From sequence record NC_031928.1: a DNA stretch of 64,000 nt. The stretch is one strand, 5' to 3'. The position numbers and the translations under genes are program-made. Numbering within the stretch: the first letter of the stretch is position 1; each line of letters starts with the position of its first letter. The notes under the pieces were generated by a model. That model was not told the origin of the DNA and did no database searches. It saw only the letters and a program-made list of their open reading frames with translations. Positions 15,044-40,295 of the stretch are shown here, one piece after another. This DNA comes from Escherichia phage WG01.

Positions 15044-15081
15044 GTTGATAGGTCTATAGTATCATTTCTACTGGAGATGTA
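15044..15081 (-). promoter_or_regulatory. early promoter cassette
   Basis: GTTTAC -35 and TACTATAGACC -10 region with dyad CAGTAG/CTACTG. Confidence 0.55.
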
Positions 15082-15086
15082 AACAA

Positions 15087-23542: not shown

Positions 23543-23559
23543 TTTGTAATCTCCTGTAG

Positions 23560-23600
23560 TTGATAGGTTTATAGTATCATACCTACAGGAGATGTAAACT
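23560..23600 (-). promoter_or_regulatory. early promoter cassette
   Basis: GTTTACA -35, TACTATAAACC -10 region, dyad CCTGTAG/CTACAGG. Confidence 0.6.
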
Positions 23601-23603
23601 GCT

Positions 23604-23882
23604 TTAGTACTTTTCTTCCGGTTGGAAAACGGAACGACACGCCCACATACTAGCTTCTTTAAGACGGTCAATTGCATTACGAATCTGGGTAATGCGTTCA
23701 TGAGCCTGGTCTAGTTCTTGTTCAGAAACCTCTTCGGTATCTAAGTTCATATAATAGGTAACATGTTCTTCTTCTAGAGCTTTAAACATCAGCCCTAACC
23801 GAATTTCGGCATCTTTAATAGCATTCACTTTACCGATTTTATCGTCGGTATGTGGTTTGTAACCCTTGATATCTTCAATCAT
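23604..23882 (-). CDS. hypothetical protein (92 aa)
   Basis: ATG ORF; T4 vs.3/vs.4 position. Confidence 0.4.
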   Translation of the reverse strand: MIEDIKGYKPHTDDKIGKVNAIKDAEIRLGLMFKALEEEHVTYYMNLDTEEVSEQELDQAHERITQIRNAIDRLKEASMWACRSVFQPEEKY

Positions 23883-24097: not shown

Positions 24098-24434
24098 ATT
24101 TTTTCCAATCAGAAATCATATGAATCTCTTGGTCATAAGTCAAGAGACTACGAGCAATAATACCCTTACAAGGCCCTGAGATGAACTCGAGAGTGAAGTA
24201 AGGAACCTGTTTCATTAATCGGATACTAGGAGCATGACATCTAAAACGAGAGCCCTTAAAGGGCCCTGTCATGAATACATATTCCAATGGGTAGAAATAA
24301 GCATATTCGAAATTTGCAGTAAGGTCCTCTCTTCGAACCTTACGTGAGAAATAACAGAACTCAAAAAGTTCTTCATCAGTCATCATTGCATTCCTATCAC
24401 AAAGAACAGAGGCAAAGGCTTGTCGCCTTGGCAC
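24090..24434 (-). CDS. hypothetical protein (114 aa or shorter)
   Basis: ORF; start uncertain. Confidence 0.35.
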   Translation of the reverse strand: MPRRQAFASVLCDRNAMMTDEELFEFCYFSRKVRREDLTANFEYAYFYPLEYVFMTGPFKGSRFRCHAPSIRLMKQVPYFTLEFISGPCKGIIARSLLTYDQEIHMISDWKKYV

Positions 24435-24910
24435 ATAAATTTATTAATCATTACCTGGTAAGCTTCATAGAACTTATCCATCGCTGGAAGGCGCATTGGC
24501 TCTTCGATAATAATCAATAATCGAGTAACAGATAGTCCACGATACTTATGGAAATTGTCTTCATCAAGGAAACTGCGCACAGTATCATAGACAACAAAAC
24601 CAGGACCTTCGACTTGGAGATGTGGGTGTGCCTTAGAAACCTGTTTTATTACATTACAAATTTCTCGCGAGCGATGCGAAGAACTCGACATAACAATCAC
24701 ATCATTACCCTTGGAAACCCAATCAGCGGCGAACTGAGCAAGGGCACTTGTTTTACCTGTTTGGCGTCCGCCATCAAGTCGAAGAGTACCAAACTCTTGC
24801 ATTCTTGAAGCAGGTTCATACCAGGTATATTGGTCTGAGTCTAAACGTTCAATGGCGCGTTCAGCGAAGGCGTGCATTAAGGTTAGATAAATGGGAGTTA
24901 AAAATTTCAT
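24383..24910 (-). CDS. small P-loop protein (175 aa)
   Basis: ATG at 24910 with AAGGA RBS; GRQTGKTS Walker-A-like loop. Confidence 0.4.
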   Translation of the reverse strand: MKFLTPIYLTLMHAFAERAIERLDSDQYTWYEPASRMQEFGTLRLDGGRQTGKTSALAQFAADWVSKGNDVIVMSSSSHRSREICNVIKQVSKAHPHLQVEGPGFVVYDTVRSFLDEDNFHKYRGLSVTRLLIIIEEPMRLPAMDKFYEAYQVMINKFMCQGDKPLPLFFVIGMQ

Positions 24911-25059
24911 AGTATTTCCTTTGAGGGCCGTTCCTTGGCACATTAATTCGTCCCTTTCTGCATTTACCCATTACCGCACTTGGGCTCGACCTTATTACAG
25001 GTTGGCGGGAGTCCCTCACAGAATTGTGAGGTCCAGGTTGCTCCCATTTAAAATGCTAA

Positions 25060-25317
25060 TTAACGTTCTTCGTGTTTAAAACCTTTCTTAGTAAACAGCT
25101 TAACAACATCTGCTACTTTACGAAGTTGATCTGCATCAGCAACCAGTTGCTTAACCACTTTCTCGTCAGTTTCTTTAGAGCTAAAAGCGTGCTCAAGTTC
25201 GTCATCATTAGGGTCGGCCATAGAAACTTCAGTGCCGGAAGGTTTAACGTTTACAATCATATTCCAACGTTTAGAAACTAAAGTGGATTCTGTAATAAAT
25301 TCTTGGTAAGTTTTCAT
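25060..25317 (-). CDS. internal-protein-like packaged protein (CTS-tagged, 85 aa)
   Basis: N-terminus MKTYQEFITE, the T4 capsid-targeting sequence ending in the prohead-protease motif I/L-x-E. Confidence 0.6.
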   Translation of the reverse strand: MKTYQEFITESTLVSKRWNMIVNVKPSGTEVSMADPNDDELEHAFSSKETDEKVVKQLVADADQLRKVADVVKLFTKKGFKHEER

Positions 25318-25325
25318 ATTAAGCC

Positions 25326-25685
25326 TTAAAGATGGTCTAGTGCCGGGTTATGAGGTTTTTCTGCTTTAGTAGTGTTTTTATGCCAATCTGATTTAGAAAC
25401 ACGGATGGCATCCGCGCCATAAGAACTCTTAAGGAGACCTTTTTTATTGTACACACTTATTGAAGTAAGAGAATCACCATTCCATGTAGCATGAATGAAG
25501 TTAGATTTAGATTTAAGTTCTTTAGCCAAGCTCTGGTTAGTGGCCATGGAAGCAAAGTCTTTACCTGTAACTTTAAAAACTTCAGATGGGTTCAGCCCTT
25601 CTTTGGCCTTAGCCAATTGTTCAGGAGACATAGCTTCGTTAATGCGCTGAGTAGATTCAGTAATAAATTGTTGGTAAGTTTTCAT
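25326..25685 (-). CDS. internal-protein-like packaged protein (CTS-tagged, 119 aa)
   Basis: N-terminus MKTYQQFITE. Confidence 0.6.
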   Translation of the reverse strand: MKTYQQFITESTQRINEAMSPEQLAKAKEGLNPSEVFKVTGKDFASMATNQSLAKELKSKSNFIHATWNGDSLTSISVYNKKGLLKSSYGADAIRVSKSDWHKNTTKAEKPHNPALDHL

Positions 25686-25727
25686 ATTATTCCTTAAGTT
25701 GATAGAAGTATTCTATCACGGATTTAA

Positions 25728-26144
25728 TTAAGCGTAAATAGCCTTGCCGTAATGTTTGTACCAGGTAGAGCGTTGTGCAATTTTTTCGTCCAAACGGGCC
25801 TGAGATATAGCAATAGAAGCTTCGTGTGGAGTATAGTCACCACGGAATTCCTGAGGAATGTCACTAATGTCCTGGACAGTAGTATCCTTGATATTAAAAC
25901 CACGTTTTAAACATTCGGCTATAAGCTCAATTTGTCGCTTACGTAAAAATTCAAGCTTATCGTAAAAGAATGTAACATGGCCTGTGCCAAGGATAAAAGT
26001 AGGACTGATTTTGAAATCACGGACACGTTTACCATTAGCAACATGCTTACGAACTGCACCGAAAACACGTGGTAATTCACGATATTCAGCCATTAAGTGT
26101 TGGTCAGCCAATTCAGATACTAAGGTAAGGTTGATACGAGTCAT
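25728..26144 (-). CDS. denV: endonuclease V (pyrimidine-dimer DNA glycosylase) DenV
   Basis: 138 aa; near-identical to T4 DenV as recalled ([34 protein letters not shown]...). Confidence 0.95.
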
Positions 26145-26159
26145 TTTTAATCTCCTGTA

Positions 26160-26200
26160 GTTGATAGGTCTATAGTATCATGACTACAGGAGATGTAAAC
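26160..26200 (-). promoter_or_regulatory. early promoter cassette
   Basis: GTTTACA -35, TACTATAGACC -10 region, dyad CCTGTAG/CTACAGG. Confidence 0.6.
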
Positions 26201-26224
26201 AACTTTTATCAAGTATAGGCTTTA

Positions 26225-26821
26225 TTAATTACCACGGGCAGCATTAGCAACGGCGTAAGCGTACTGAATATTAGCGTCTTTAAACGTACCTTTAGAGGTA
26301 TCTATTTCTGCCTTAAAGCCGCCTTTAGCCATAACATCGGCAAATTCTTTACGGAAAGTCATTGCATCAAGACCTTTCCATGCGGATTTATGCTTGGCAA
26401 ATTCAAGACCGGCGAAGTTGACCGCCTTAGCCAATTTATTATCAATAGTCCATTTACCTGCTTTAGGTACAAATACAGGACCTTTCTGTTTAGAGAACAG
26501 TTTTAAATTCCAGCGACGAAGGTCGCCGTCAGCTTTAACAAAAGCTGCGTCCAAGTTACTAGCAACAACATCTTGGATATGGGCAAATTTAAGTCCATCA
26601 GCTTCAATATTTAGGTCGTTACGCCAGCGAAGTCCTTCCCAGGCGAAAGCTTTAAAATCAGAAGCTTTTGTAGCCAAGTACCGTTCAATAGGAGCTGTTT
26701 TAGCGTCAAAACCGTTTCCTGGGTTGTCAACGCCGTTTCCTTTGTAAGTCCACTCATCTTTATTAATGCCTTGGACCTTTCCTACAGAAGCTTCGGCGAT
26801 AAATTCTTTATACGTTTTCAT
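26225..26821 (-). CDS. ipIII: internal protein III-like (CTS-tagged, 198 aa)
   Basis: N-terminus MKTYKEFIAE; length and position next to e match T4 IPIII. Confidence 0.7.
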   Translation of the reverse strand: MKTYKEFIAEASVGKVQGINKDEWTYKGNGVDNPGNGFDAKTAPIERYLATKASDFKAFAWEGLRWRNDLNIEADGLKFAHIQDVVASNLDAAFVKADGDLRRWNLKLFSKQKGPVFVPKAGKWTIDNKLAKAVNFAGLEFAKHKSAWKGLDAMTFRKEFADVMAKGGFKAEIDTSKGTFKDANIQYAYAVANAARGN

Positions 26822-26867
26822 ACGGGTTCCTTAAAGGAAAATATTTTAATTGGTCTGTTCAAGTAAC

Positions 26868-26903
26868 TGTAGATATACTATCACAATTCTAGGAGATGTA
26901 AAC
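26868..26903 (-). promoter_or_regulatory. early promoter cassette (short copy)
   Basis: GTTTACATCTCCTAG followed by TAGTAT. Confidence 0.45.
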
Positions 26904-27302
26904 TTATTTATAGGTCTTCATCCAATTCTTGAACAAAGCCGCGACGTCTTTCTCTTTAACGTTCAGTTTAATGTCCAACATTTTACCACCCGCTGCTCTG
27001 GTTTGGCGAATCTTAGCAGTACCGGTTTCGCCATTCCACTCAACATAATACTGTCCAGTGTTCATTGCAATACCATCACCGTAGTCTTCATTTTTAGAAG
27101 TGGTGAATGCTAGCTTCATAGTCTTAGATACACGAGCCTGCATGCCTGTCTGAAGGGCATTACGAACGCGAATAACCTGAGGAGTGGCCTGGGTCAAGTT
27201 CTCATTCAGTTCTTCAGTGAACTCTTCAGATTCAAACATCGCCAAAAGTTCTTTAGATGCAGGAATTACATTCTCTGCGATAAATTCATTATAAGTTTTC
27301 AT
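26904..27302 (-). CDS. internal-protein-like packaged protein (CTS-tagged, 132 aa)
   Basis: N-terminus [10 protein letters not shown]; T4 ipII position. Confidence 0.6.
26905..26912 (-). promoter_or_regulatory. candidate late promoter TATAAATA
   Basis: exact TATAAATA on the minus strand upstream of ipIII, overlapping the upstream stop codon. Confidence 0.4.
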
Positions 27303-27783
27303 ATGCTTTCCAAGTACCTGTTTTAAATGTTGAAATCACGCGCTTAGCACGATTAGGAGTTTGTTTATACCAACGGGATTGAGCCAGGTTAACTGCCGCA
27401 TCGTTCCAACGTTTCTGTTGGAGCATACGTAAAGAGTTAGTGAACCCTGCTACGCCTGCTTCACCCATTTGGAAGACCATGTTAATTAAAGCACAACGAC
27501 GAACTTCGTCCAGTACATCATAAACAGGTTTCAATTTAGGATTACGCAGAATAGCTCTACGAGCATTTTCAACCGATCGGTTAAAGAGTTGTTCAGCTTC
27601 AGCCATAGTAATACGACCATTACAAACTCGACCCATAAGCTTATCAAGTTCAGCACGAGCAACATCTTTAGAAGGGTTCTTAGTAATCAATTGGCCAATG
27701 CCAATAGTCCAATAACCTTCAGTGTCTTTATAAAGATTTAAATCAAGACCTTCGTCTTGACGTAACATATCAAAAATATCCAT
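27289..27783 (-). CDS. e: lysozyme (endolysin) e
   Basis: 164 aa, same length as T4 lysozyme; catalytic Glu11/Asp20/Thr26 context [21 protein letters not shown] conserved. Confidence 0.95.
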
Positions 27784-27787
27784 AATA

Positions 27788-27813
27788 CCTCCTGAGTATA
27801 GGAGGTATTTATA
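27788..27813 (-). promoter_or_regulatory. late promoter TATAAATA with RBS-sequestering hairpin for e
   Basis: minus strand TATAAATA-CCTCC-tatactca-GGAGG-tatt-ATG; the 5' arm CCTCC can pair with the RBS GGAGG. Confidence 0.6.
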
Positions 27814-28263
27814 TCAAAAGAGTGAATCCAAAACCTTAAACATCGACGGGCCCATGACATATTCCCATTGTGGCCGTTTAATCAAGGCAAAAGCATCGAA
27901 TTCAGGAATAGTACGACCATCAGGGAACGTATGGTAAGCCGTACATTTGCAATCCTTGAACTGCTCGTGTTCCACAGGAACTGTATATAAGAACAGATGT
28001 AGATTCTTATTGCTTGAATATTTGAACTCACCTAGGTCTTTCAGGAACGCAGGATCGTATGCTGTGAATCCAATCTCTTCTTCGGTTTCGCGCATTGCCG
28101 CTTGAATGGGCTCTTCGCCTGGTTCGACATGACCCTTAGGAATGTCCCATTTATGACGCATATTCTCTGGATTACGAGAGCCTGTTACACGGCCCATGAC
28201 CAGTTCTTTATCAACGGTCATGAATAAAATACCGGCAGATAGTTCTTTCACTTTCTTACTCAT
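27814..28263 (-). CDS. nudE: Nudix hydrolase NudE
   Basis: ATG at 28263 gives 150 aa; Nudix box GHVEPGEEPIQAAMRETEEEIG; follows e as in T4. Confidence 0.85.
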   Translation of the reverse strand: MSKKVKELSAGILFMTVDKELVMGRVTGSRNPENMRHKWDIPKGHVEPGEEPIQAAMRETEEEIGFTAYDPAFLKDLGEFKYSSNKNLHLFLYTVPVEHEQFKDCKCTAYHTFPDGRTIPEFDAFALIKRPQWEYVMGPSMFKVLDSLF

Positions 28264-29989: not shown

Positions 29990-30015
29990 TTTATTCTCCA
30001 TTTCACTCTGTTGTT

Positions 30016-30056
30016 TTGATAGGTCTATAGTATCACACCTATAGACCTTGTACACT
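30016..30056 (-). promoter_or_regulatory. promoter cassette variant (GTGTACA -35)
   Basis: dyad GGTCTATAG/CTATAGACC around TACTATAGACC. Confidence 0.5.
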
Positions 30057-30067
30057 GTTTTGTGCAA

Positions 30068-35332: not shown

Positions 35333-35355
35333 ATCTTTTTTAAACCTTTTAGAAA

Positions 35356-35384
35356 CAAAAAAGGCCCAACCTTTCGGAAGGGCC
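35356..35384 (-). terminator. rho-independent terminator
   Basis: GGCCC-TTCCGAAAGG-TTGGGC hairpin followed by T7 on the minus strand. Confidence 0.55.
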
Positions 35385-35389
35385 TAGAA

Positions 35390-35988: not shown

Positions 35989-36453
35989 TTATTTGATTTG
36001 TTTAGCAGACCAGATACGGTCTTTGATGATTTTCTGAATATCTTCAACATACTCTAAGTCGTGAGCATGTGGATTATCTTTGAAGCTATGTGCTCGTGCC
36101 AGTTTCTGGCCTTCTGTTTTGATTACTAAAAGCTCTTTAAGAATTGCTTCATACTTAGAAATAATTCCTTTGGCGATATTTTTTTCTTGAGCGGCTTTAG
36201 GGTCCGCTTTTGACGCAGGTGCTTTACCTGTAGCTTTCTGGAACAATTCACCTGATGCAGCTAGGCTTTTAAAAACTCGGCTAACAGTATTGGCATTAGT
36301 AAAACCTTCGGCTTTAAAATCTTTAATAAAACGGAAACGTTCTTCATCAGAGGCGTCTTTGTAAGAATATTTACCTGCTTGAATTGCTGCAATCGCAGCG
36401 GCTTTTACATCTGAACTAGATTGTTCAGTCAAAAATTCATTGTAAGTTTTCAT
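35989..36453 (-). CDS. internal-protein-like packaged protein (CTS-tagged, 154 aa)
   Basis: N-terminus [10 protein letters not shown]; late promoter ~27 nt upstream. Confidence 0.6.
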   Translation of the reverse strand: MKTYNEFLTEQSSSDVKAAAIAAIQAGKYSYKDASDEERFRFIKDFKAEGFTNANTVSRVFKSLAASGELFQKATGKAPASKADPKAAQEKNIAKGIISKYEAILKELLVIKTEGQKLARAHSFKDNPHAHDLEYVEDIQKIIKDRIWSAKQIK

Positions 36454-36479: not shown

Positions 36480-36487
36480 TATTTATA
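36480..36487 (-). promoter_or_regulatory. late promoter TATAAATA
   Basis: exact TATAAATA on the minus strand ~27 nt upstream of the ATG at 36453. Confidence 0.55.
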
Positions 36488-36488
36488 C

Positions 36489-36518
36489 AAAAAAAGCCCA
36501 ACCTTTCGGAAGGGCCTT
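36489..36518 (-). terminator. rho-independent terminator ending the tRNA/stable-RNA transcript
   Basis: same hairpin as 35356..35384 (GNRA loop) followed by T7. Confidence 0.55.
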
Positions 36519-38384: not shown

Positions 38385-38401
38385 TTTATTCTCCTCAGTA
38401 G

Positions 38402-38442
38402 TTGATAGGGTAATAGTATCACTACCCTATCTAAAAGTAAAC
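38402..38442 (-). promoter_or_regulatory. early promoter cassette
   Basis: GTTTAC -35 and dyad AGGGTAATAGTATCACTACCCT. Confidence 0.5.
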
Positions 38443-38453
38443 GGTTTTATAAA

Positions 38454-38762
38454 CTATTTTATTCCGCGTGATGCAATCGTATTCTGCCGTTTAACGCCAG
38501 TTTGTTTAAAGTTATGATTGTCGAGTTGATCGGTACGAGCAACTCCGAATGATGATTTAATCTTAGCTTTAGATCCTTTAGTTATAGAAATAAACATCTC
38601 GGGAGCCCCTTTCTTAAAGTCCGAAGCAATTACTTCAACACCGTTCTTAGCAAGTGACCTCAGAATTGCTTCCACATACTCATCATCAAGACCTGCTTGA
38701 GTATGAATAACGAATGTCTTTGGTGCAGCCGCTTCATTGATAAATTCTTGGTATGATTTCAT
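38454..38762 (-). CDS. internal-protein-like packaged protein (CTS-tagged, 102 aa)
   Basis: N-terminus MKSYQEFINE. Confidence 0.6.
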   Translation of the reverse strand: MKSYQEFINEAAAPKTFVIHTQAGLDDEYVEAILRSLAKNGVEVIASDFKKGAPEMFISITKGSKAKIKSSFGVARTDQLDNHNFKQTGVKRQNTIASRGIK

Positions 38763-38822: not shown

Positions 38823-39095
38823 TCATTTTAAATAAATTGCATATTTTTTATAACCCGCTGTCTCATGACGAAGACCCTTATCATTAGCAAAACGCTCAAT
38901 GTTGTTAATTTGATTCTGGTCAAGTTCAGAGATGTCAAACACGAAAAAGTTACGTTTGTTGCCTAAAGTTACGTGATTAGTCAAATCGATGTTATAGAGA
39001 TGATTTATATTATCAATCATGGTCTTAACAGATTTGTTAATTTTTACTTCTTCATTAAGAATAGATTCAGCGATAAATTCTTGGTATGATTTCAT
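38823..39095 (-). CDS. internal-protein-like packaged protein (CTS-tagged, 90 aa)
   Basis: N-terminus MKSYQEFIAE. Confidence 0.6.
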   Translation of the reverse strand: MKSYQEFIAESILNEEVKINKSVKTMIDNINHLYNIDLTNHVTLGNKRNFFVFDISELDQNQINNIERFANDKGLRHETAGYKKYAIYLK

Positions 39096-39096
39096 T

Positions 39097-39318
39097 TTAT
39101 TCTACGCCTGCGGCTTTCAAAAGTTTTTTAAGATTGGCTATGCCGCCAGCAGAAAACGTGACCTTGCCACCTTTTTCATTGATAGAGCCAGTCAATTTAG
39201 CAAGCTTATCACTAGGGACTTTTTTAAAATCAGCCAGTATGCCATCAAAGGTTTTTGTAACAACCGGCAGTTGGTCATGTTTTTTGGCTTCTGTAATAAA
39301 TTCTTGATAAGCTTTCAT
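39097..39318 (-). CDS. internal-protein-like packaged protein (CTS-tagged, 73 aa)
   Basis: N-terminus MKAYQEFITE. Confidence 0.6.
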   Translation of the reverse strand: MKAYQEFITEAKKHDQLPVVTKTFDGILADFKKVPSDKLAKLTGSINEKGGKVTFSAGGIANLKKLLKAAGVE

Positions 39319-39345
39319 TTTTGATTTCCGTTTGGTTAGTTTGTT

Positions 39346-39385
39346 TTGATAGGTCTATAGTATCATGCCTATAGACCTTGTAAAC
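39346..39385 (-). promoter_or_regulatory. early promoter cassette
   Basis: GTTTACA -35; dyad GGTCTATAG/CTATAGACC. Confidence 0.55.
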
Positions 39386-39396
39386 AACTTTTTAAA

Positions 39397-40295
<899 letters not shown>

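Follow-up and report, generated by a model that had tools for sequence, protein, structure and literature searches.

Background

What are the small genes that surround denV in Escherichia phage WG01, and how can they begin alike and then have nothing in common? The window that we analysed is a stretch of 64,000 nucleotides of this phage (sequence record NC_031928.1), and its interval from e through denV to vs.8 is one of the two known internal protein (Ip) loci of T4-type phages. Four open reading frames (ORFs) of this interval start with a ten-residue tag, two on each side of denV, as the initial annotation of this DNA had noticed. One of them is ipIII; the other three we call o85, o119 and o132. 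In our opinion, these four ORFs probably encode tagged Ip precursors in an array of exchangeable cassettes, and their mature products are likely to be injected anti-defence proteins. We would give this reading a probability of about 0.8.

Four tagged genes around denV

The four tagged ORFs, as well as e and denV, lie on the minus strand, and the gene order is e, o132, ipIII, an empty ipII slot (26145-26224), denV, o119, o85 and vs.8. The left boundary of the array is e, the gene of the T4-type lysozyme (27289..27783). The start of o132 (26904..27302; 132 aa, predicted mature product 122 aa; phrog_15461 match, E=8e-92) and the end of e have 14 nt in common. Next after o132 comes ipIII (26225..26821; 198 aa, tag MKTYKEFIAE, predicted mature product 188 aa). 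The fixed gene of the array is denV, which encodes endonuclease V, the pyrimidine-dimer glycosylase (25728..26144; Pfam PF03013 Pyr_excise, E=1.2e-14; phrog_1183, E=1e-62), and it sits between the two pairs of tagged ORFs. The first cassette downstream of it is o119 (25326..25685; 119 aa, tag MKTYQQFITE, predicted mature product 109 aa; phrog_3966 match, E=4e-26). The last one before vs.8 is o85 (25060..25317; 85 aa, tag MKTYQEFITE, predicted mature product 75 aa), which starts 8 nt past the o119 stop with a Shine-Dalgarno (SD) sequence of its own, AAGG.

The tag fits M-K-T-Y-x-[EQ]-F-I-x-E in all four cases, and residues 8-10 are I-T-E or I-A-E, so that the (L/I)-x-E motif of the prohead protease gp21 is present in 4/4 tags. 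The back-translated tag pattern has nine matches in the window, all at the starts of minus-strand ORFs, and 0.00 in shuffles. The four proteins were also compared without the tag, together with four of the other tagged ORFs, and no two of them resemble each other (best E=0.15, these eight sequences being the database); the statement of the initial annotation that the downstream parts are unrelated to one another is therefore correct. Mature o119, IPIII and o132 are basic, with isoelectric points (pI) of 8.8-9.5, that of o119 being 9.5.

The ORF at 26225..26821, previously described as IPIII-like, is a true ipIII orthologue, since its product is 87% identical to T4 IPIII over 188 residues, that is, over the full length (phrog_5341, E=4e-115). 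The assignment of the 26904 gene to the ipII position was wrong. The order in T4 is e-ipIII-ipII-denV-vs.8, and o132 occupies the slot between e and ipIII, which is empty in T4. It is also unrelated to IPII, with no BLASTP match to IPII of T4 or of ABTNLS3 at E<0.01. The real ipII slot of the window holds only a promoter and a stem-loop. Synteny with T4, JS98, RB69 and Marfa places all four genes in an Ip locus. In the WG01 record gp114, gp115 and gp118 are annotated as hypothetical and the fourth tagged protein as an internal virion protein. The closest DNA matches of the locus are in Dhakavirus (JS98-like) phages, and no record of the phage collection that was searched spans more than 89% of its 2.5 kb.

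Are the tagged reading frames real genes?

It could be argued that o85 and o119 are decaying, untranslated remnants of Ip genes. Both are annotated as hypothetical only, and o85 is extremely rare. The initial annotation itself had pointed to this possibility for the products at 25060 and 25326. The ratio of non-synonymous to synonymous substitution rates (dN/dS) is 0.04 for o119 against AnYang (27 synonymous and 5 non-synonymous changes) and 0.07 for o85 against the metagenomic contig L010 (12 and 4). For o132 it is 0.02-0.05 (0.02 against JS98), for ipIII against JS98 0.16, and for denV, given for comparison, 0.03. An SD sequence stands at normal spacing before each of the four genes, those of o85 and o119 being good ones, and the o85 and o119 frames are intact in every copy. 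The only distant relative of o85, at 56% identity, retains the length, the exact tag and the last slot before vs.8. Because synonymous changes dominate every comparison and the SD sequences are at normal spacing, the remnant explanation is ruled out; the low dN/dS effectively refutes it, and we regard its chances as negligible. Judged by how their sequences change, all four tagged ORFs are genuine protein-coding genes.

The three families differ greatly in their distribution. Only 5 of 50,697 phage records contain mature o85, always in an identical form, and it makes up two 50%-identity clusters among 1.84 billion representatives, the second being the distant relative just mentioned. There are 88 phage records with o119, of which 11 are close relatives and 77 are at ~32% identity, typified by RB69 ORF123c. 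The o132 family is found in 48 records from Dhakavirus, Klebsiella Marfavirus, Serratia 4S and Erwinia Cronus phages; across 12 homologues its tag is invariant and residues 11-30 vary.

Homology gave no indication of function. Word-indexed searches with o85 and o119 returned only their own clusters, and neither Pfam nor NCBIfam has a family for any of the four tagged proteins. Structure prediction with fold or sequence searches produced nothing informative for o85, o119 and o132, and o85 and IPIII have no sequence match in the PDB. We take a PDB match of o119 to an apparently designed repeat protein (E=4e-4, 28 residues) as noise. The same applies to a match of o132 residues 5-97 to the target-recognition domain of M.HhaI (E=0.01), which looked plausible by eye and was lost with the family profile; that profile found flagellin at E=0.02 instead. 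We also considered whether the C-terminus of o132 (...NWMKTYK*) is a recombination scar of a tag start. This was rejected, as W-[ML]-K-T-[YH]-K is conserved in the protein down to 47% identity.

Exchange of cassettes among relatives

The initial annotation suggested that the locus is a swap site, and the alignment of the locus across related phages supports this. ABTNLS3 has e-o132-ipIII-ipII-denV-o119-o85, that is, ipII in addition to the genes of the window, and PSD9 has no o132. In AnYang a cassette of 99 aa substitutes for o85. JS98 has e-ipIII-o132-denV-99aa, with o132 in the ipII slot and without o119. RB69 carries one ORF with a degenerate tag upstream of denV and three tagged ORFs downstream, Marfa has e-o132-ipII-denV-ipIII-104aa with ipIII downstream of denV, L010 has e-denV-o119-o85 only, and another contig (L012) has five tagged genes, of which three come after denV. 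There are at least eight different arrangements among the relatives, and from their sequences the exchange of cassettes at this locus is well supported.

Our survey covered 34 IMG/VR contigs with e-denV-vs.8 synteny. The number of tagged ORFs ranges from 0 to 2 upstream of denV and from 0 to 3 downstream; 23 of the 34 contigs have at least one downstream, and the T4 pattern (two upstream, none downstream) was seen in only two. Tagged genes on both sides of denV are thus the rule and not an oddity. When the tagged ORFs of these contigs were clustered with the eight of the window, T4 IPII and four proteins of L012, a set of 79 proteins in all, 19 unrelated families resulted, and 16 of them occur at the e-denV-vs.8 locus. 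Four families are found on both sides of denV, including IPIII (5 upstream, 7 downstream).

Breakpoints and constraint on the tag

Where do the exchanges occur? The comparison of o85 with the 99-aa gene of AnYang, and that of o119 with the 99-aa gene of JS98, give the same picture: the leader and the ten tag codons are near-identical, and from codon 11 onwards nothing can be aligned. The breakpoints of these swaps coincide with the 3' end of the 30-mer that encodes the tag. On the right-hand side homology returns at 25005, within a conserved element before vs.8. The o132 indel relative to PSD9 runs from 27310 to 26904, exactly the gene, and the ipII indel relative to ABTNLS3 abuts a 63-nt repeat that consists of a promoter and a stem-loop.

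Among the 79 clustered proteins, Y4 is kept in 78, and F7, I/L8 and E10 are kept in all 79. In T4 IPIII residues 4 and 7 of the tag are reported to be critical for targeting, and residues 8 and 10 for processing (PMC9026906). The copies of the tag differ in synonymous codons (TAC/TAT, ATT/ATC, GAA/GAG), and therefore the constraint is on the protein and not only on the DNA. As far as sequence comparison can tell, the 30-nt tag is under selection at the protein level and is at the same time the 5' homology arm.

Expression signals

The expression signals described here are consensus matches only. There is one early-type promoter each for ipIII, denV and o119, and the promoter-like sites at the cassette junctions are at 26902-26875, 26199-26172 and 25738-25710. 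The module upstream of ipIII (26847..26912, minus strand) contains a late-promoter consensus, TATAAATA, at 26912-26905, where it overlaps the o132 stop codon, followed by the early-type TTTACA-16-TAGTAT. The module upstream of denV (26144..26206, minus strand; GTTTACA-16-TACTAT) fills the empty ipII slot. Its stem has 12 bp, and the 3' arm contains the denV SD (GGAG). It stands at the junction of the ipII indel relative to ABTNLS3, and in L010 it comes directly after e. The third site (25710..25738, minus strand) has TTTACG-17-TAGAAT and, upstream, a TG. Located across the denV end and upstream of o119, it overlaps a small stem-loop (GATAGAA...TTCTATC).

The 63-nt repeat of early promoter and stem-loop, our family D2, resembles the elements known as PeSLs and has six copies at gene junctions of variable regions between 22 and 41 kb of the window (23543-23605, 26144-26206, 26847-26909, 29999-30061, 38385-38447 and 39329-39391). 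Three copies are found within 3 mismatches, with a chance expectation of 0.00. The modules are PeSL-like, with an approximate match to the TTTACW-N17-TAYWAT of the T4 group (spacer of 16, TAGTAT). No terminator-like site was found between the genes of the array; the three that the scan returned lie in coding sequence, one of them in o119, and are not above shuffles.

A few further observations concern these signals. The promoter part of D2 has a seventh close copy at 15051-15084. The 12-bp hairpin that holds the denV SD (26144-26190) carries the -10 box in its loop, so that transcripts from denV's own promoter would free the SD and read-through transcripts would sequester it. Gene e has the classical T4 layout in 27784-27813, with a late promoter TATAAATA at 27813-27806 and an SD-sequestering hairpin.

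The tag and the expression signals bear on another possible explanation, namely that o85 and o119 are expressed but remain cytoplasmic and unpackaged. Their N-termini would then be a by-product of recombination, the tag and its leader being a portable module for translation initiation. With junctions exactly at the 3' end of the tag, any incoming ORF acquires the tag automatically, and neither o85 nor o119 has a late-promoter consensus of its own. It counts against this explanation that T4 Ips are made from early times onward, and also that the tag residues are held by selection despite synonymous drift. Further, the ten-residue tag by itself loads foreign proteins such as green fluorescent protein or a nuclease into T4 heads (PMC3012670, PMC9026906), and therefore a tagged protein that is present during assembly should be packaged. 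We consider this explanation improbable.

Packaging and function

We return to tagged precursors that are packaged and injected. The first ten residues of each precursor would be the capsid-targeting sequence (CTS) of T4, and by analogy with T4 IPIII would bind the scaffolding core while the prohead is being assembled. Cleavage by gp21, the prohead protease, would follow after Glu10, in the motif I-x-E. The mature proteins would remain in the head, would be injected with the DNA and would then most likely disarm first-line host defences. Exchange would be confined to the part that encodes the mature protein, and recombination between co-infecting relatives would use three homologies: the 30-nt tag with the ribosome-binding leader, the modules of early promoter and stem-loop, and the element before vs.8.

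The anti-defence part of this scheme draws on T4. In 2025 T4 Ip1, Ip2 and Ip3 were shown to inhibit GmrSD type IV restriction enzymes, a different one for each Ip, and the description of "the two Ip loci" was that of a counter-defence hotspot (PMC12373910). Further, ipIII is required for infection of ECOR17, and IPIII without a tag, supplied in the host, restores infection (PMC9391042). It is a reasonable inference that the IPIII orthologue of the window is a counter-defence protein against GmrSD. For o85, o119 and o132 it is the tag that suggests packaging. Their cleavage, injection and anti-defence activity would follow by analogy, and a counter-defence role is suggested for them through guilt by association.

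Several points weigh against our reading. Ip4-10 gave no reproducible inhibition when set against 15 GmrSD groups (PMC12373910), and therefore GmrSD is not a guaranteed target and the targets may lie elsewhere. Mature o85, with a pI of 6.1, is not basic, unlike the classical Ips. Neither o85 nor o119 has a late-promoter consensus to itself, and the two genes rely on an early-type promoter or on transcripts that read through from ipIII. Literature searches found no virion proteomics or N-terminal mapping of o85, o119 and o132. The window ends near genes 15-16, and gp21 and the scaffold genes are outside it; the gp21 protease and the gp22 scaffolding core are expected in a Tevenvirinae genome.

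Could the proteins be packaged and act mainly in the head, in assembly kinetics or in condensation and charge neutralisation of the DNA, and not as injected effectors? In T4 IPIII mutants head assembly is slower and polyheads accumulate, and the Ips are abundant (~360 copies each) and basic (PMC9026906); the high pI of mature o119, IPIII and o132 would suit such a role, that of o85 would not. However, an in-head role would favour conservation, and what is seen at this locus is 16 unrelated families in alternation, with no tagged gene there in some phages. On laboratory strains T4 can do without Ip1-3, each of which has a specific defence target (PMC12373910). The rescue by tag-less IPIII from the host also argues against an in-head role. 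Such a role seems unlikely to us, though less so than the cytoplasmic explanation.

A conserved element before vs.8

The right boundary of the array, which we regard as its right homology arm, is a non-coding element of 121 nt between o85 and vs.8 (24925..25045, minus strand; core 24961-25009). It is 89% identical to T4, and blastn aligns no other part of vs.8 with T4, whose annotation puts the element at the 5' end of vs.8. We rejected the idea that this GC-rich stretch is coding: no reading frame is kept across its 34 versions, which have no consistent starts or stops. The fold of the single sequence is unremarkable (z = -0.45), and structure is visible only by comparative analysis.

In a gapless alignment of 26 distinct 49-nt cores, with controls in which the partners were slid, the pairing pattern supports a three-way junction in the core. 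The closing helix pairs 25007-25003 with 24970-24965, and the two hairpins are 25002-24989 and 24985-24974. Standard pairs make up 90% of the cells (at most 47% in the slid controls), and the covariation score is 0.307 (at most 0.077). In all 26 sequences three pairs of the closing helix are canonical; their double substitutions number 8, 10 and 18. The 5' outer helix of the element also covaries. A candidate pseudoknot is at the same position in five sequence variants, but it does not reach significance in any sequence taken by itself.

Each of 38 viral contigs has one copy of the element, which was also found in 17 metagenome contigs and in none of 185,579 bacterial and archaeal genomes. Rfam has no match at E<=1 over 24300-27900 and only noise at E<=10 over 24880-25080. 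The element is not a tRNA or tmRNA, and a literature search for a known RNA near vs.8 returned nothing usable. In two unrelated phage contigs (L121, L127) the core has other flanks, away from vs.8, and about 100 nt after it there are sites that resemble intrinsic terminators, clear in L121 and probable in L127 as judged by eye. A stand-alone core with such sites suggests a small RNA gene, and the element may be an undescribed small RNA or leader.

Two further contexts of the element were seen. Three contigs of T4-like phages (L144, OGVK01003213.1; L022; L031) have two tandem copies, a complete one and then a more degenerate one ~100 nt downstream. In the Marfa-like contigs L007, L133 and L141 a tagged ORF lies downstream of the element, which is thus not always beside vs.8.

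It is tempting to go further and to propose that o85, o119 and o132 are injected and inhibit defences beyond the three GmrSD variants of T4 Ip1-3, and that the array is right-anchored by a previously undescribed, single-copy structured RNA, which is shared by T4 and unrelated phages and may be a separate small RNA gene. We put forward this combined proposal only tentatively and think it has less than an even chance of being correct as a whole.

The longest ORF of vs.8 is 24383-24943, starting at 24943 (MCQGTALKGNT...). The PHROG match begins at residue 12 of this ORF, and hence the true start is likely to be the ATG at 24910 (MKFLTP...), which has AAAGGAAA as SD. The annotated vs.8 of T4 (219 aa) runs over the element in a frame that other phages do not keep. 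The vs.8 product has a Walker-A-like motif, GGRQTGKT, and weak P-loop NTPase matches.

The second Ip locus and the wider neighbourhood

Five further tagged ORFs (35989-36453, 38454-38762, 38823-39095, 39097-39318 and 39397-39606, minus strand) are at the ipI locus, next to a 57B-like gene. A product of 102 aa from this locus shares 48% identity with the 99-aa cassette found downstream of denV in JS98 and AnYang, and therefore families move between the two loci. The ORF at 39097-39318 (73 aa) has a variant tag, MKAYQEFITE, with Ala at position 3. Two GC-rich, terminator-like hairpins that are 97% identical to each other (35355-35385 and 36487-36517; AAAAAGGCCCAACCTTTCGGAAGGGCCT, + strand) bracket the tagged ORF of 154 aa together with the next ORF. 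The upstream copy is directly before a late promoter, TATAAATA, at 36487-36480, and the 154-aa Ip gene therefore has its own late transcription unit.

A homologue of vs.4 (23604-23882, minus strand; 92 aa) lies three genes downstream of vs.8. The product of its counterpart in the near-identical contig L010 (5073-5351) carries the Pfam domain Acb2_Tad1_hairpin, of the anti-CBASS sponge family, and a Macro-domain gene is found further on. With these neighbours, the Ip locus lies within a wider counter-defence neighbourhood.

Relationship to known systems

Unrelated tagged proteins that alternate at two loci are an established phenomenon, and the picture of T4 biology is unchanged by our analysis. 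Variable Ip loci have been described since 1994 (Repoila et al. 1994, cited in PMC3012670 and PMC2839356; PMC12373910). Alternative Ip genes of T-even phages, Ip4-Ip10 and "more than 30 IP variants", are on record for the two polymorphic IP loci (Repoila et al. 1994 and Comeau et al. 2007, through citations in PMC2839356, PMC3012670 and PMC12373910). As in the window, these are unrelated ORFs that share the tag and swap at fixed loci flanked by early promoters and stem-loops. The T4 Ips have the same ten-residue tag with the I-x-E motif and the same locus (e-ipIII-ipII-denV), and they are likewise small, mostly basic and unrelated in their mature parts. The differences are that o85, o119 and o132 have no sequence similarity to T4 IPI, IPII and IPIII beyond the tag, and that the window has two tagged genes downstream of denV where T4 has none.

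In PeSL elements a TTTACA-N16/17-TA..AT promoter lies in a stem-loop at cassette junctions, as it does in the D2 repeats. However, the best-resolved breakpoints of the window are in the coding tag and not in the promoter or stem-loop, and the PeSL authors call the elements associated with T-even IP genes analogues, not homologues, of RB49-type PeSLs. The anti-CRISPR and anti-defence hotspots of Pseudomonas phages, as well as integron arrays, also have a fixed address, small unrelated genes that are exchanged fast, and conserved borders. The locus in the window has no integrase or attC-type site; exchange here would occur by homologous recombination on a shared coding tag that doubles as the delivery signal.

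The new finding is a modest one, namely three candidate Ip families that had no annotation and are recorded in databases as hypothetical, one of which is nearly an orphan and any of which may overlap with the IP variants already listed. To this we add a correction of the locus map and breakpoints resolved to the base at the tag boundary, which are modest contributions as well.

Implications of the hypothesis

Ips enter the cell with the phage DNA and can thus act on host defence before phage genes are expressed, and the T4 Ips were matched to their targets only recently. With o85 almost an orphan, o119 common to RB69-type phages and o132 common to phages of Klebsiella, Serratia and Erwinia, the three families are candidates for counter-defence screens. 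They may help to explain host-range differences among therapeutic Dhakavirus phages. The locus also suggests a design rule, in which the 30-nt tag would address the protein for packaging and would at the same time be the handle for recombination.

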